From the NCBI GenBank assembly GCA_963752155.1, contig CAVVXH010000011.1, positions 64,001 through 128,000 on the forward strand: a DNA stretch of 64,000 nucleotides, written 5' to 3'. The notes beneath the pieces were generated by a model, which saw only the letters and a list, made by a program, of their open reading frames with translations, was not told the DNA's origin and did no database searches. Positions 57,621 to 63,135 of this stretch are shown here, piece by piece; positions within the stretch are counted from its first letter, which is position 1; each line of letters starts with the position of its first letter. The stretch is from an uncultured Parachlamydiaceae bacterium (GTDB taxonomy: Bacteria > Chlamydiota > Chlamydiia > Chlamydiales > Parachlamydiaceae). Position numbers and translations under genes: made by a program.

Positions 57621-58067
57621 TTAGTGATGACGAACAGGAAGTTTAGCAGTTGGCTTTTTGACTCCGTATGCTTTTGACTTAACAGCAGCTTTTTGTGTCT
57701 TAACAGCAGGCTTTGCAGTAGGAGTTTTAGCTTTAACGCCTTTTGCTGGAGCTTTTGCGGCATGTGCTGGTTTAGCTGCAGGTTTTGCGTGTGAAACGAC
57801 TTTGCCTTTAGGAGCAGCAGTTTTACGGCTCTTTTTTGATTTAGCATGGAGAGCTTTTTCATGAAGAATTGATTCTTTACGGTAAGCTTTAGCCACTTTT
57901 TCTAGTTTCACAGTGCCAGTCCTGACTCTTTGTGAAGCAGCCTTGTTTCCTTTGTTTGACTTTTCTAGGTCTGTTGTGATCTCAGAAAGTAGATTTGTCA
58001 TATATTCTACAATTTTATCCAAGCCACCAAGTTCGTTGTGATGATGTTTTTTGAGCGACATATACAT
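57621..58067 (-). CDS. hctA: Histone H1-like nucleoprotein Hc1
   Basis: DLEKSNKGNKAASQRVRTGTVKLEKVAKAYRKESI plus a Lys/Ala-rich tail; adjacent to rlmD-yajC. Confidence 0.93.
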   Translation of the reverse strand: MYMSLKKHHHNELGGLDKIVEYMTNLLSEITTDLEKSNKGNKAASQRVRTGTVKLEKVAKAYRKESILHEKALHAKSKKSRKTAAPKGKVVSHAKPAAKPAHAAKAPAKGVKAKTPTAKPAVKTQKAAVKSKAYGVKKPTAKLPVRHH

Positions 58068-58242
58068 AGCCTCCTATATATTTAGACTGTTACTCTATAA
58101 ATACCCTCTTTAAGTATATTCTGCAATCACTATTCTTCTTTTTTTTAAAAAAAACAAAAAAGGCCATTTGTATCAGCAAACGACCTTTTTCAAATATGCA
58201 TCTAAAATCACTTCTAGAGCCCATTTTCTAAGAATACAGATA

Positions 58243-58782
58243 TTATTCAGAAGCCGTTTGGATAAGTTGCTCAATCCGACTTTTTAGTGAAACGAGCTCT
58301 TTTTTAGCCCCTTTTAGAACTTCACGGGACTTCTCCACTTTCTCCATTTCTTGTAAGCGGGAAGAAAAATGGTGAAGCAATTGAATAGTACTTTCGGCAT
58401 TCGTAATAAAATCAAACTCTTCTCCATCGACCCTGCGGATTCGATTTCCAAAAAGAGGCATTTCAGGATGATTGATAATGTCAGAAGTTACAATACTTAG
58501 AAATTCCCCTCTTTCAGAAACCTCTCTGGCAACTCCAATCTGTAAAGAAAAACGATCGATCAGCTTTTGAGTATTCGGATCTAACGTAGATTTAGCCCCG
58601 CTTGGATTTTCTTGAGCCCCTTTGAGAAGAGCCTCAAGCAAACGCGTTGCAGCCTCTCGATTTCCTTCAAGACAAAACAAGATAGCATTTTGCATTTGTC
58701 TAAATGAACTTTTAGAAAGAGGCAACGTTAAAATGCGCTGAAATGCCATACTTAGCTGTTGCAGTTTTTTTTCATCTATCAT
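58243..58782 (-). CDS. Conserved chlamydial hypothetical protein (possibly DUF5414)
   Basis: Intact 179-aa ORF with RRVDGEEFDFITNAES; the family name is from memory only. Confidence 0.6.
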   Translation of the reverse strand: MIDEKKLQQLSMAFQRILTLPLSKSSFRQMQNAILFCLEGNREAATRLLEALLKGAQENPSGAKSTLDPNTQKLIDRFSLQIGVAREVSERGEFLSIVTSDIINHPEMPLFGNRIRRVDGEEFDFITNAESTIQLLHHFSSRLQEMEKVEKSREVLKGAKKELVSLKSRIEQLIQTASE

Positions 58783-58839
58783 ACTAACCCTCTTTAAGGT
58801 AAAATGTTATAATCTGTCCATATTCATAGATAGGATCAA

Positions 58840-61260
58840 ATGAAGACTAACAGATTTTTTCTTTTTAGCATAGTACTACACATTATTGTAGGACTCTTGC
58901 AAGGTGACTTAATTCAACCTTTAGATACAGCTGAAAATCTTTTTAAGGCAACCTTATTCAACAAAGCAATTCCTGTCTATACCGAGATCTTAAAGGCCAC
59001 TGAAGAAAATCAAGCTCAGCAAGAATTCATCAAATACAGGCTAGGGCAATCCCATTACTATCTCAATGAGTTCGAAGAAGCTCACGCCTATTTTAACTCG
59101 ATCAATTATACTCTTTTGAAGAGCTCTCTAGAAGAACCGAATCTTCTTGCTGACCACCTGCCAGCCATTACCTGCCGCCAACTAAAAAAATATCAAAAAG
59201 CCATTGAAATTCTATCTGAACAAGAACCCCTTACTCACCAAGCGCATTTTGAGCTTGCACTCAATTACTTCTTATCAGAAAACCACTTTTCTGCCAAAAA
59301 TGCTCTCAAAGAATTAGAAAAAAAATGCAAAAATGAACCTCTTCATACTTTAGTGCAATTTTACCTAAGCCGCATCAGCATTATCCATGGTTGTTATTCT
59401 GAAGCTTCAGAACATCTTAATAACCTTAAAATTCCCACTAATGATCCTTTGCTACTCGAATTGGCCTATTTGCATGGAGAAATTGCCTTCCACACACATT
59501 GTTATGAATCAGCCATTCAACACTTTACTCAAGCACTTCCAAAACGTAACTTTGAACACGCTGCATGGACGTGTGATACTCTCTACTATCTTGGATGGAG
59601 CCATCTAAAAATAGCCGATGATCAATCTCAATCCTTAAACCTAGAAACGGCAGTTCAAGATGATAAAGTGATGCAAGATTTTGAGTTAGAATTGCTTCTG
59701 ATGGGGGGTGATCATTCCCAAAAGGTGAAGGCGCCCCCCTTCAGAAGCGATTATGGTTCAAAAGATTGCGTCAATTTATCGTCTTCAACTGCCATTTCTA
59801 GGTTAAATGACCAAAAGTTCCATTTTGACAAAGCAGTTGAAGCGTTTTCTCAACTTCGGCAAATCAAGCCCACAGAAAAAACTCATTTGGCTTTGGCCCA
59901 ATGCTATTTAGCCAAAGGGGTACGCTTTAATGAAAAACAGATGTTCTCCCTTGCTGAAGAGATCCTTTCCGATTCCCAGAATTTTACGACTCCAGAAGCC
60001 CAATCTCACGCACTTCTCTTGATTACAGAGATGTTGGTTGGCGACGCTCGGCTAAACCTCGAAGCGACCTATCACTTTAAAAAGAATAACTTTAAGAGAG
60101 CTGAAGAATTCTTCAACTGTCTTGTTGCCGAGTATCCACACTCTCAATGGTTGGACGAAGCTCTCTATTGGAGTGCCATTTGTGCAGAAAAGCTTAAAAG
60201 AGAGGATAGGGTTATCAAAGAGACTCGCAAAAAGCTGTTTGAAGAGTATTCAACGTCTCCACTTGCAGCTTCAGCCTACTTCCAATACTACAGCTACCGC
60301 GAGTACCTACAGAGCGATCGAAATGCTATCAAGCACTTAAAAGCTTTCAATACAAAATTTCCAGACTCCCCTTTACTCATCAATGCCCACCATTTGATCG
60401 GTCTAGATTACAAAAGAGATCGGAAAAGTTCTAATGAAAAGTTCTTAAGCAAAAAAAATCTAACAAAAGCGATTGCTACATTTTCCAAAACTGAGCAACT
60501 TTTTGACACATTCTACGATCGAAATCTTATTCCTCAGGATCAACTGGAACATTATATAACTATACGTTACAGGGCCATGCTGGAACGTGCGATGGCCAAT
60601 CAAGCTATAGCAGAGAGTTCTCAGGGTGCTAAACGTGAAATCTACTTTCAATACGCTCAGAAACTGTTCATACAAATCAATCAAGAATTTTCAAAGGGCT
60701 CCTCTCTTGCTATCTACCTAACTCACGCGCAGCCTTTTCCAAAAATCCAAGAAGAATGCCTCTACCGCCTTATCCAAAGCTATATTAAAGTGCAAAACGA
60801 TGCAGATGCTGAACGGTATATCGACTTCATGATTGCTAAATACACTGAACTGAATATTTCCAAAAGTTATTATCTTTCCCGCATTTACTATGAAAAGGGG
60901 ATGATCGCAATGGAGCAATCTCAGTATAATCGAGCATGGTCATCATTTATGTTAGCAGAAAAACATGGCGGAGAAAATCTACTGAGCACAGACCAAAAAC
61001 TAGATCTATGGATTCAAGAGAGTGAATGTTGCAAAGCCCAAAACCTTACAGATAAGGCCATGATGATTTTATCAAAAGTCATCAACGATAATACTATTTC
61101 CAGCCTACGTGTCAAAGCGATGTACCTGCGCGCATCCATCTATGCTATGCAAGGGCGACACGACCTCGCTCGCAAGCAGTTAGCTGCCACAGCAACAAAG
61201 GGAGGCGAATGGGCTCTCAAAGCAAAACTAAAATTAGAAGAGGATTATGGATTACAGTAA
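58840..61260 (+). CDS. Exported TPR-repeat protein, first gene of the tol/exb-like operon; carries a 56-aa palindromic insert
   Basis: Signal peptide; TPR-like helices (YRLGQSHYY, LYYLGWSH, YPHSQWLDEALYW). Confidence 0.85.
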   Translation: MKTNRFFLFSIVLHIIVGLLQGDLIQPLDTAENLFKATLFNKAIPVYTEILKATEENQAQQEFIKYRLGQSHYYLNEFEEAHAYFNSINYTLLKSSLEEPNLLADHLPAITCRQLKKYQKAIEILSEQEPLTHQAHFELALNYFLSENHFSAKNALKELEKKCKNEPLHTLVQFYLSRISIIHGCYSEASEHLNNLKIPTNDPLLLELAYLHGEIAFHTHCYESAIQHFTQALPKRNFEHAAWTCDTLYYLGWSHLKIADDQSQSLNLETAVQDDKVMQDFELELLLMGGDHSQKVKAPPFRSDYGSKDCVNLSSSTAISRLNDQKFHFDKAVEAFSQLRQIKPTEKTHLALAQCYLAKGVRFNEKQMFSLAEEILSDSQNFTTPEAQSHALLLITEMLVGDARLNLEATYHFKKNNFKRAEEFFNCLVAEYPHSQWLDEALYWSAICAEKLKREDRVIKETRKKLFEEYSTSPLAASAYFQYYSYREYLQSDRNAIKHLKAFNTKFPDSPLLINAHHLIGLDYKRDRKSSNEKFLSKKNLTKAIATFSKTEQLFDTFYDRNLIPQDQLEHYITIRYRAMLERAMANQAIAESSQGAKREIYFQYAQKLFIQINQEFSKGSSLAIYLTHAQPFPKIQEECLYRLIQSYIKVQNDADAERYIDFMIAKYTELNISKSYYLSRIYYEKGMIAMEQSQYNRAWSSFMLAEKHGGENLLSTDQKLDLWIQESECCKAQNLTDKAMMILSKVINDNTISSLRVKAMYLRASIYAMQGRHDLARKQLAATATKGGEWALKAKLKLEEDYGLQ
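59635..59806. mobile_element. In-frame palindromic element (family E), TTAA-bounded, 168 bp
   Basis: Arms AACCTAGAAACGGCAGTTCAAGATGATAAA... and ...TTTATCGTCTTCAACTGCCATTTCTAGGTT; TTAA at 59635 and 59803. Confidence 0.85.
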
Positions 61261-61906
61261 CTTTTTTTTAAGCACACTCTTTGAGTATGGTGCCAAATGG
61301 AATATTATTCTCATTCTCATTGGATTTTGTTCCATCTTAAGCTTTACCATTTTTTTAGAACGGCTCATCCACTTGCGTCGTGCAGAGATCGACACAAATG
61401 CGTTTATCATGAATCTACGTACACCGATCAAGGAGGGTCACATCGTCGCAGCAATTCAGCTTTGTGAACAAAATGAAGGCACTATTGCAAATATCGTGAA
61501 AGCGGGCCTCTTAAGACATAACCGCGGCAAAGAACAGATTGAAAATGCGATGGAAATTTCCGGCCTGATTGAAATCTCACATCTTGAAAAAAACGCCAAG
61601 ATTCTTTCGATTATCGCACATATTGCCCCCCTCATCGGCCTCCTAGGGACTGTTCTCGGTTTCATCCAAGCATTTTCAGAAATGCGCACAACAGGACTTG
61701 TAGATATCTCTGCTACGCGCATTGGAGAGGCCATGGAATATGCTCTTATCACCACAGCAGCCGGCCTAGTCGTAGCTATTCCTTCTGTGATTGGATACAA
61801 CTACATTGTCAGTAGAGTTGAAGGATTTGTATTAGAAATGCAAACGACCTCGCAAGAAATCATTGAACTACTCATTTATACCGATGAAGAGCAATACAGG
61901 ATGTAG
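61247..61906 (+). CDS. MotA/TolQ/ExbB proton channel family protein
   Basis: IAPLIGLLGTVLG...ALITTAAGLVVAIP. Confidence 0.93.
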   Translation: MDYSNFFLSTLFEYGAKWNIILILIGFCSILSFTIFLERLIHLRRAEIDTNAFIMNLRTPIKEGHIVAAIQLCEQNEGTIANIVKAGLLRHNRGKEQIENAMEISGLIEISHLEKNAKILSIIAHIAPLIGLLGTVLGFIQAFSEMRTTGLVDISATRIGEAMEYALITTAAGLVVAIPSVIGYNYIVSRVEGFVLEMQTTSQEIIELLIYTDEEQYRM

Positions 61907-61907
61907 C

Positions 61908-62351
61908 ATGCGTTTTAAAACGAACCTTAAAATGACTCCCAATTTAATTGATTTAACTCCTTTAGTCGATGTGATTTTCTTAATGCTCGTTTTCTTTATA
62001 GTGACTTCAGACATTTTACCTCTAAAATCACTCAATATTGAAAATCCCGTTCTAGAAGCTGATTCTACGCCTTTAACAACACAACTTCTAGTCGTTATGG
62101 ATGCACAAAATGTCATCTATGTGGGCTCTAAAAAAGAAATTTCAGATTTTGGATCTTTAAAATCACACTTGAAGGATAAAATTGCCAAGTTGCAAACAAA
62201 ACATCCAACCACGATTCCCACAGTAGTTCTTAGCGTCGATCGTAAAGTTGAATATGGTTTATTTTTGCAACTTTTTGCCATTGTCCAGGAATCCGCTCCA
62301 AGGTTAAGGCTTGTCTATCGTCCATCTGAGAATCAATCTTCCGAGTTGTAA
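61908..62351 (+). CDS. ExbD/TolR family protein
   Basis: IDLTPLVDVIFLMLVFF; D..V.YG. Confidence 0.93.
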   Translation: MRFKTNLKMTPNLIDLTPLVDVIFLMLVFFIVTSDILPLKSLNIENPVLEADSTPLTTQLLVVMDAQNVIYVGSKKEISDFGSLKSHLKDKIAKLQTKHPTTIPTVVLSVDRKVEYGLFLQLFAIVQESAPRLRLVYRPSENQSSEL

Positions 62352-62352
62352 A

Positions 62353-63135
62353 ATGCTAAAGCTTGAAAAAAACGGCAAGACGCATGAATTAAGAGTTCTC
62401 TTACGTACAAAACCCACTTTTTTTTCTGGTCCGTTTCTTTATGCGTTAGCTTACGCCCTTTTAATCCACTTAGGAGCACTCTTTATCTTTAAAATTTCTC
62501 CCTTTGTAGTGAATTACCAACAATCTGTATTTCCTCCGGTAAGAGTAGCTACTGAAATGCCCATTCAACATGGAATGTACCCTGCAACTCTCCAATCTGA
62601 GGAACAAGAACCTATACCATCCTATTTAATAGCCCCACTTCCTTCTACACCCCATTTTCCAAATTCCTATAAAATGTTATCTACTCTTGCGAATAGCGAA
62701 TCGATCGAGTTAACGGCTTCTTCTATTTTAAACAATCCCTTTCTTCAAGATAATGAAATGGATTCATCTCAGTATGATTCGATCGATGATACGTATCAAC
62801 TTTTAACGTATCATCTTTCCGGAACTCTTGCAGAGCTTTCATTAACTTTAGTTGATCATCAAACAACAGAATTACTTCCTCGTGATACATACTATGCTAT
62901 CTTTGCAGTTCACATTAACCAATCCGATGGCCACATTTTTTGGTGGGAAATGAAGGAAATGAGGACGATGAAGGAGAATTCTAATGAACAAAAGTTACAA
63001 AATGAGGCTATCGAAGCTCTAAAGAATTTAAAACTAGAATTTACTCAACAAGATACATCTGATATCTTATCGGGTGAAATTGAAATTGTTATGGTCCCTC
63101 AATATATACAAGAAAAGGAAGCCGTTCTAGAATGA
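62353..63135 (+). CDS. Single-TM Pro-rich periplasmic protein (possible TonB/TolA-like partner)
   Basis: One TM containing ALLIH, a Pro-rich linker, and a position after exbB/exbD-like genes. Confidence 0.5.
   Translation: MLKLEKNGKTHELRVLLRTKPTFFSGPFLYALAYALLIHLGALFIFKISPFVVNYQQSVFPPVRVATEMPIQHGMYPATLQSEEQEPIPSYLIAPLPSTPHFPNSYKMLSTLANSESIELTASSILNNPFLQDNEMDSSQYDSIDDTYQLLTYHLSGTLAELSLTLVDHQTTELLPRDTYYAIFAVHINQSDGHIFWWEMKEMRTMKENSNEQKLQNEAIEALKNLKLEFTQQDTSDILSGEIEIVMVPQYIQEKEAVLE

Follow-up and report, generated by a model that had tools for sequence, protein, structure and literature searches.

A palindromic 163-bp MITE inserted in frame in a TPR gene of a Parachlamydiaceae bacterium, and its likely IS1380-like partner

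Introduction

How does a palindromic repeat come to lie in frame inside a conserved gene, and is it translated there as part of the protein? This question is raised by a TPR gene in the window, by which we mean the whole stretch of 64,000 nucleotides analyzed here (assembly GCA_963752155.1, contig CAVVXH010000011.1, positions 64,001 to 128,000 of the forward strand) from an uncultured Parachlamydiaceae bacterium. A first-pass annotation, made from the letters alone, described the insert and took it for a sequence-distinct analogue of the Rickettsia palindromic elements (RPE). Statements on cited articles refer here to the accessible portions of their texts. Protein-coding palindromes have been known in Rickettsia since 2000 (Ogata et al. 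2000, 2002; PMC10969869, PMC2229807, PMC1458961), and in the one tested case, gmk, the effect of the RPE insert was near neutral (PMC2229807). As far as these portions go, reviews give RPE no target duplication and no proven enzyme (PMC2229807, 2007), and a 2024 review considers a similar process in other prokaryotes as merely conceivable (PMC10969869). In-frame fusions of MITEs are also known in Coxiella (PMC5896051).

Results

The features of the locus, in window coordinates, are the following:

58840-61260, + strand: host gene, coding for a TPR protein of 806 aa and followed by ExbB- and ExbD-family genes
59635-59639, + strand: left copy of the target site duplication, TTAAA, 5 bp (sequence)
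59640-59802, + strand: palindromic MITE, 163 bp, CCTAG...CTAGG (copy comparison)
59640-59655, + strand: left terminal inverted repeat, CCTAGAAACGGCAGTT, 16 bp (same or nearly the same 16-mer at the ends of IS1380-like elements)
59714-59728, no strand assigned: putative central site, position 75 from both element ends
59787-59802, - strand: right terminal inverted repeat, 16 bp, with one mismatch to the left one
59803-59807, + strand: right copy of the target site duplication, TTAAA, 5 bp (sequence and copy comparison)

The imperfect inverted arms, first described as about 70 bp long, span 77 nt (59632-59708 and 59734-59810) and are 81% complementary. The predicted RNA fold of the element has -100.1 kcal/mol (z = -17), and none of 200 shuffled sequences was equally stable. 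The TTAA boundaries of the first-pass annotation had to be moved, as the target in fact comprises five bases, TTAAA; a duplication of TTAA alone (4 bp) was ruled out by the co-variation, to the left and to the right, of the base that flanks TAA/TTA/TGA. The net gain of 168 bp holds, being composed of 163 bp of element and 5 bp of duplication, that is, 56 codons. In a set of 88 copies drawn from five genomes, the 5-bp duplication is exact in 80 and the length is 163 bp in 80, and the commonest targets are ATTAT, TTTAA, TTAAA, ATAAT and ATGAT; in the copy-rich relative G023 the duplication is exact in 120 of 131 copies, a set that overlaps with the former. Each terminal repeat carries one TAG (element positions 3-5 and 160-162) and each TAG closes one phase, which leaves as readable only the phase in which the first base of the target is also the first base of a codon. 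In the window copy one of the six frames is open, namely the sense frame in phase with the duplication. The Rfam scan of the element gave three weak matches far below the gathering scores, which we regard as chance hairpins, and no promoter-like or terminator-like sites were found in 59560-59880. Terminal inverted repeats, a duplication of constant length, small size, no encoded transposase, dispersed copies, a stable hairpin and ends in common with an autonomous IS are all present; judged by these sequence features the element is a MITE, that is, a non-autonomous class II element, for which mobilization in trans is predicted.

The insert occupies residues 266-321 of the TPR protein, between two predicted TPR helices, exactly as the in-frame translation had been written in the first-pass annotation. 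The clean gap of 56 residues that was expected in orthologues appeared in all 15 relatives aligned, out of 28 TPR relatives found (P0002-P0029), none of which has the segment. Both same-genus genomes have the TPR orthologue and neither has the element; in one of them, G002, the empty site reads DQSCSPEQQK. The protein is 61-62% identical to its three closest relatives in the alignment. An AlphaFold model based on an alignment of 16 sequences places most of the insert at pLDDT <50 and the flanking helices at about 90, with a good fold on both sides (mean pLDDT 85). At about 60030 (residue 398-399) the protein lacks about 85 residues compared with the three closest relatives and about 150 compared with distant ones, a gap that is in frame and unrelated to the MITE. 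Within 57621-63135, a Hc1 histone-like gene and a CT_584-like gene come first, and the TPR, ExbB and ExbD genes and an unassigned 274-aa ORF follow, in one run on the + strand. Two DNA sequencing runs gave only short contigs of other element copies, without the TPR gene.

The genome of the window (G000; 3.13 Mb in 22 contigs, 80% complete), whose proteins resemble those of Parachlamydiaceae records and chlamydial families, contains several fragments and nine full copies; the full copies have unrelated flanks and are 92-97% identical to the one in the window. The latter is the most diverged of the six 163-bp copies in this genome, yet it is still open. Six of the nine full copies are genic, all of them in sense and in phase 0. 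Those with an intact frame or at a start site lie in the TPR gene, near the start of an RND adaptor gene and on the ATG of a PHP/RNM-like gene. In the other three, in Hsp70-like, heptosyltransferase-like and ABC ATPase genes, a 1-bp indel breaks the frame, which we count against the main reading:

G000 contig positions C1:52815, C5:32797 and C9:13176: frame-broken genic copies in the readable phase, each with a 1-bp indel inside the element (decay or assembly error)

Several single copies deserve mention. In the one on the start codon of the PHP/RNM-like gene (C10:627809-627971), the duplicated ATGAT provides a new ATG that gives an N-terminal extension; the peptide is also N-terminal in the predicted proteins PriA (P0056) and RuvC (P0096). 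An internally deleted form of about 58 bp is present at two places whose flanks are alike but inverted (C7:11817 and C7:15423), and another of about 120 bp has decayed ends (C11:218641). In the copy at C1:52815, part of the left arm is the mirror of the right arm, a pattern that suggests arm-to-arm conversion in the hairpin.

Copies are found both in unrelated genes and between genes, as had been anticipated. Outside this genome, matches occur in 12 of 60 relatives, 10 of 36 within the family, with a patchy distribution, and G023 holds at least 165 copies (165 exact pattern matches). A scan of species genomes for the exact 16-base end, covering 3 of 64 parts, gave 122 loci, which extrapolates to about 2900 stretches in all; the records belong to Beta- and Gammaproteobacteria, Nitrospira, Verrucomicrobia, Acidobacteria and Chlamydiae, and some of the chlamydial loci may duplicate genomes of the relatives set. 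These loci contain 66 paired elements, most of which measure 163, 234 or 237 bp; in 41 the 5-bp duplication is exact. A larger family of 232-238-bp MITEs (loci L015-L133), common in Beta- and Gammaproteobacteria records, has the same ends, duplication and internal site, and most of its lengths do not preserve the frame. The genome G021 contains a second 163-bp family (L206, L209, L211, L213) with an intact central site and stops in both directions, which coexists there with the open family and a complete IS.

To evaluate the phase of insertion in a design that avoids the in-frame bias of protein searches, DNA copies were classified in 1.38 Mb of G023 (about half of the genome). The regions included 31 of 100 picked around known copies, copies less than 150 bases from a region end were dropped, and the genic class was assigned by a codon-score heuristic rather than by annotation. 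Coding sequence flanked 29 of the 131 copies on both sides; 27 of these were in phase 0 (19 sense, 8 antisense) and two out of phase, and a single one departed from the 163-bp length. Among 3000 random target sites, 2102 (70%) were genic and 800 of these (38%) were in phase 0 (27/29 vs 800/2102, Fisher p = 1e-9). Relative to non-genic sites, retention amounted to 0.30 in phase and 0.014 out of phase, and looser or stricter thresholds gave 29/35 and 24/25 copies in phase 0. The G023 variant is open in both directions; one of the eight antisense copies is a 162-bp form, which is closed. A bias towards the sense direction, 13:1 in the first sample, became 19:8 with more data and the claim was dropped.

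Another aspect to consider is the enzyme that would move the element. The ends of ISEcp1 are of the CCTA type, as in the element. At two loci, L085 and L011 (G021), the element ends flank a DDE transposase, which exceeds the PF13701 cut-off (76.9 and 80.4 bits vs 34.7). By far its best NCBIfam model is NF033539 (IS1380), with 143 and 151 bits; we name it "IS1380-like" because these scores are under the cut-off of 180. It is about 21% identical to transposases of the ISEcp1 family. Complete partner ISs measure 1.63-1.80 kb, and their terminal 16-mer equals that of the element with 0-5 mismatches. Checking 33 loci yielded 12 complete ISs with both flanks, of which five had an exact 5-bp duplication, one a 4-bp duplication and six none. 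At L151, a MITE 96% like the majority type of the window's genome lies about 30 bp from a complete IS. The partner transposase family is present in the copy-rich G023 and in G021. A search of the window's own genome, which is 80% complete, with PF13701 and the G021 protein as queries did not find a cognate transposase, and it was found in only 7 of 301 genomes of the phylum; these results fit a transient visitor. An IS1634-type transposase (L013) was also considered as partner and discarded, since its ends do not match.

The alignment of MITE and IS left ends revealed a second common signal, TCACC-N5-GGTGA. It is exact in 17 of 17 orientable IS left ends (0.7% in shuffles), at offsets of 77, 88 or 97-101, that is, in steps of about one helical turn. 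Within one mismatch it is found in 46 of 65 paired MITEs (0.4% in shuffles), as a rule at a distance of 74-77 bp from one end, and elements of the 163-bp class have it at their center (74 + 15 + 74 = 163). The main chlamydial family, window copy included, retains the GGTGA half only: in the window this half is intact (59724-59728) and the TCACC half has decayed to ATTCC, with three mismatches in total. In the ISs there is an overlap between this motif and the opening codons of the transposase gene (H-x-x-G-E in 11 of 14), and part of its conservation there could be at the protein level. The fixed position that it keeps in non-coding MITEs speaks for a signal in the DNA, and the central site is likely a binding site of the transposase or of a host factor.

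The 56-residue peptide was recognized in 96 predicted proteins (108 candidates), four of them from the window's own genome; all these hosts are predictions, and a search at the protein level is blind to insertions that are out of frame. Most of the 96 full-length inserts (70) are internal to their host protein; another 18 lie close to the N-terminus and 8 close to the C-terminus. Seventeen scanned hosts received NCBIfam names that include AtpG, Fmt, Def, MurG, LpxK, LpxB, TilS, RuvC, TsaC, EpmA, FolC, PriA, MenD, IspD and NadD; RecB, SucA and PFP are further named hosts. For AtpG and MurG, relatives of solved structure can be aligned to either side of the insert. Hosts in G023 include SMC, XerD, a LolE-like permease, AroD-AroE and PheT (after codon 13). 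The AroD-AroE gene (L172, on G023 C2) carries two separate in-frame copies, and two peptide copies are also present in six database proteins, in tandem in P0030. Searched against Pfam and NCBIfam, the peptide matched no family (in NCBIfam, 0 families at E <= 1), and an Atlas search was uninformative, with 0.80 as best match.

As to selection on the peptide, variable columns by codon position were 22/44, 27/44 and 19/43, with no excess of third-position changes between or within genomes, and four of the six changes of the window copy fall on codon position 1 or 2. The 163-bp elements in Nitrospira and Gammaproteobacteria records encode a different peptide. Seven of ten clusters of 163-bp elements are open in at least one direction, vs 8-19% in shuffles, and grouping at 65% identity leaves only four lineages, two large and open, two small and closed. 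Because closed 163-bp lineages and different peptides exist, the length of the element is independent of coding. Selection for an open frame in element lineages is suggested, and the peptide, showing no sign of selection on its sequence, looks like a tolerated passenger rather than a useful segment. The earlier statement that the palindrome creates new peptide segments in conserved proteins is thus kept as a description.

Discussion

We consider it likely that the TPR gene carries a 163-bp MITE, in frame between two copies of its 5-bp target. An IS1380-like DDE transposase acting in trans was probably responsible for its insertion, and translation is predicted to give a loop of 56 residues that has little order and is tolerated. 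The transposase would recognize the 16-bp ends, and probably the central TCACC-N5-GGTGA too, and would insert the element at 5-mers resembling W-T-N-A-W. As element and duplication add up to 168 bp, the downstream frame would be kept, with read-through expected only if the target starts on a codon boundary and the core is stop-free in that direction; most genic insertions of other kinds would be lost to selection. The length probably reflects the geometry of transposition (74 + 15 + 74 bp around the central site) and not the peptide, and stop-free variants may spread better in gene-dense genomes. Points that weigh against this reading are the cognate transposase, not found in the window's genome and seldom found in the phylum, its NF033539 scores under the cut-off, the complete ISs that lack a 5-bp duplication, the overlap of the central motif with transposase codons in the ISs and the half-lost motif of the window copy.

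Other explanations have to be weighed against this one. An insert that is removed after transcription or translation, in the manner of an intron, an intein or RNase processing, would leave the mature protein without it. The very stable hairpin would suit such removal, as would the copies in usually essential genes (AtpG, Fmt, LpxK, PheT), and G.T outnumber A.C mirror mismatches on one strand by 100 vs 36 (18 representatives of common ancestry), a weak hint of a selected single-stranded fold. However, removal at the RNA level would tolerate any phase, so the about 20-fold rarity of out-of-phase genic copies argues against it, and the phase bias argues for an insert that would be read through by ribosomes. 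With nothing in Rfam near the gathering score and no Pfam or NCBIfam match for the peptide, we give removal very little credence. The presence of the peptide in 96 predicted proteins and the open frames of most 163-bp clusters could alternatively reflect a selected functional module that spread because it helps its host proteins. Against such a module stand the pattern of changes over codon positions, in the window copy too, the other peptide of the Nitrospira and Gammaproteobacteria elements, the closed 163-bp lineages, Atlas matches of 0.80 at most and the depletion of genic copies in G023 (29/131 vs 70% of control sites), and it seems to us extremely improbable.

The element could also be mobile but moved by another enzyme, such as a RAYT/HUH tyrosine transposase or that of another IS family, its ends being relics of a common origin. 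The cognate transposase was not found in the window's genome or in two of four carrier genomes searched, and position 5 is G in the MITE end vs A in most chlamydial IS ends, which would agree with this idea. Nevertheless, MITE and IS have ends, type of target, duplication length and internal site in common, and the partner family occurs in G023 and G021; moreover, exact 5-bp duplications such as those of the MITE fit a DDE enzyme. Another enzyme is thus very unlikely in our opinion. Finally, the family may be real and the TPR gene decaying or inactivated by its insert, in which case this copy would say nothing on tolerance. The about 85 residues missing elsewhere, which we count against the main reading, indicate that the gene may be under relaxed selection, and the three sister insertions in the same genome are frameshifted. 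Yet the 806-codon frame is open, the protein shows 61-62% identity to its closest aligned relatives, the model is well folded to either side of the insert, and the copy, in spite of its divergence, is not closed; we can lend hardly any weight to a decaying gene.

The tolerated MITE with an IS1380-like partner resembles several known systems. Like RPE, it consists of stem-loop repeats of about 150 bp with an open frame, placed in frame inside unrelated conserved genes and also between genes, in a host that is likely an intracellular bacterium. It differs from them in its length (163 bp vs 105-146 bp), in its exact 5-bp duplication, for which Table 1 of PMC2229807 gives '?' in the case of RPE, in having a matching autonomous IS and in ends that occur in several phyla. 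The comparison with RPE models that had been proposed gave no match among the NCBIfam models, which include RPE1; a search with TIGR01045 (RPE1) matched none of three genomes, a result with no positive control in which the control genomes were silent too. Judged by sequence, then, the element works like RPE but matches no RPE model, the comparison being with models and not with RPE DNA. The view of a sequence-distinct RPE analogue is supported, with the refinement that the element is more than an analogue: a MITE with an IS1380-like partner whose ends are found in several phyla.

With the IS1380 family it has in common a partner above the PF13701 cut-off with NF033539 as best model, and, in the element itself, an AT-rich 5-bp duplication, as ISEcp1, a member of that family, makes 5-bp duplications (PMC2887853), although among the complete partner ISs only 5 of 12 show it exactly; unlike that family, the partner is under the NF033539 cut-off, as a divergent clade, and the element itself encodes no transposase. 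Coxiella QMITE2, the 107-bp form of Neisseria Correia/NEMIS, ERIC/RU-1 and RU-2 are likewise non-autonomous, with terminal inverted repeats, a long hairpin and occasional in-frame fusions (PMC5896051, PMC2229807, PMC3184786). Their ends are different, however, and their duplication is TA, or 7-11 bp in QMITE2; in the element described here, the constant length makes the sum of element and duplication divisible by three, and housekeeping genes often carry it in frame and away from their ends (70/96 internal).

In the literature covered by our search the family is not described; subscription journals, ISfinder and the supplements of PMC11602168 lay beyond its scope and may list it. The accessible portions of PMC10969869, PMC5896051 and PMC11602168 mention neither IS1380 nor chlamydiae, and those of the Delihas reviews (PMC2229807, PMC3184786) do not mention chlamydiae either. 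The concept is known from Rickettsia, and what is added here is a target rule, a partner enzyme, a central site and a measured phase filter. A family unrelated in sequence does the same in chlamydia-related bacteria, with a target rule, a candidate transposase and a putative internal site, so that the movement of the element and its tolerance by proteins become directly testable. For annotation, it matters that the peptide ties about a hundred unrelated proteins together in sequence searches.

More tentatively, and with doubts that outweigh our confidence, we may see here a cross-phylum "stealth" transposon, whose symmetric design around one central site happens to add 56 codons and whose stop-free lineages, such as that of G023 with its two open directions and at least 165 copies, would have been favored by selection as invaders of gene-dense genomes, essential genes included. 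If this were true, and given its IS1380-like transposase, it would be the first protein-coding palindrome with reconstitutable mobility, and a natural tool for in-frame loop insertion.
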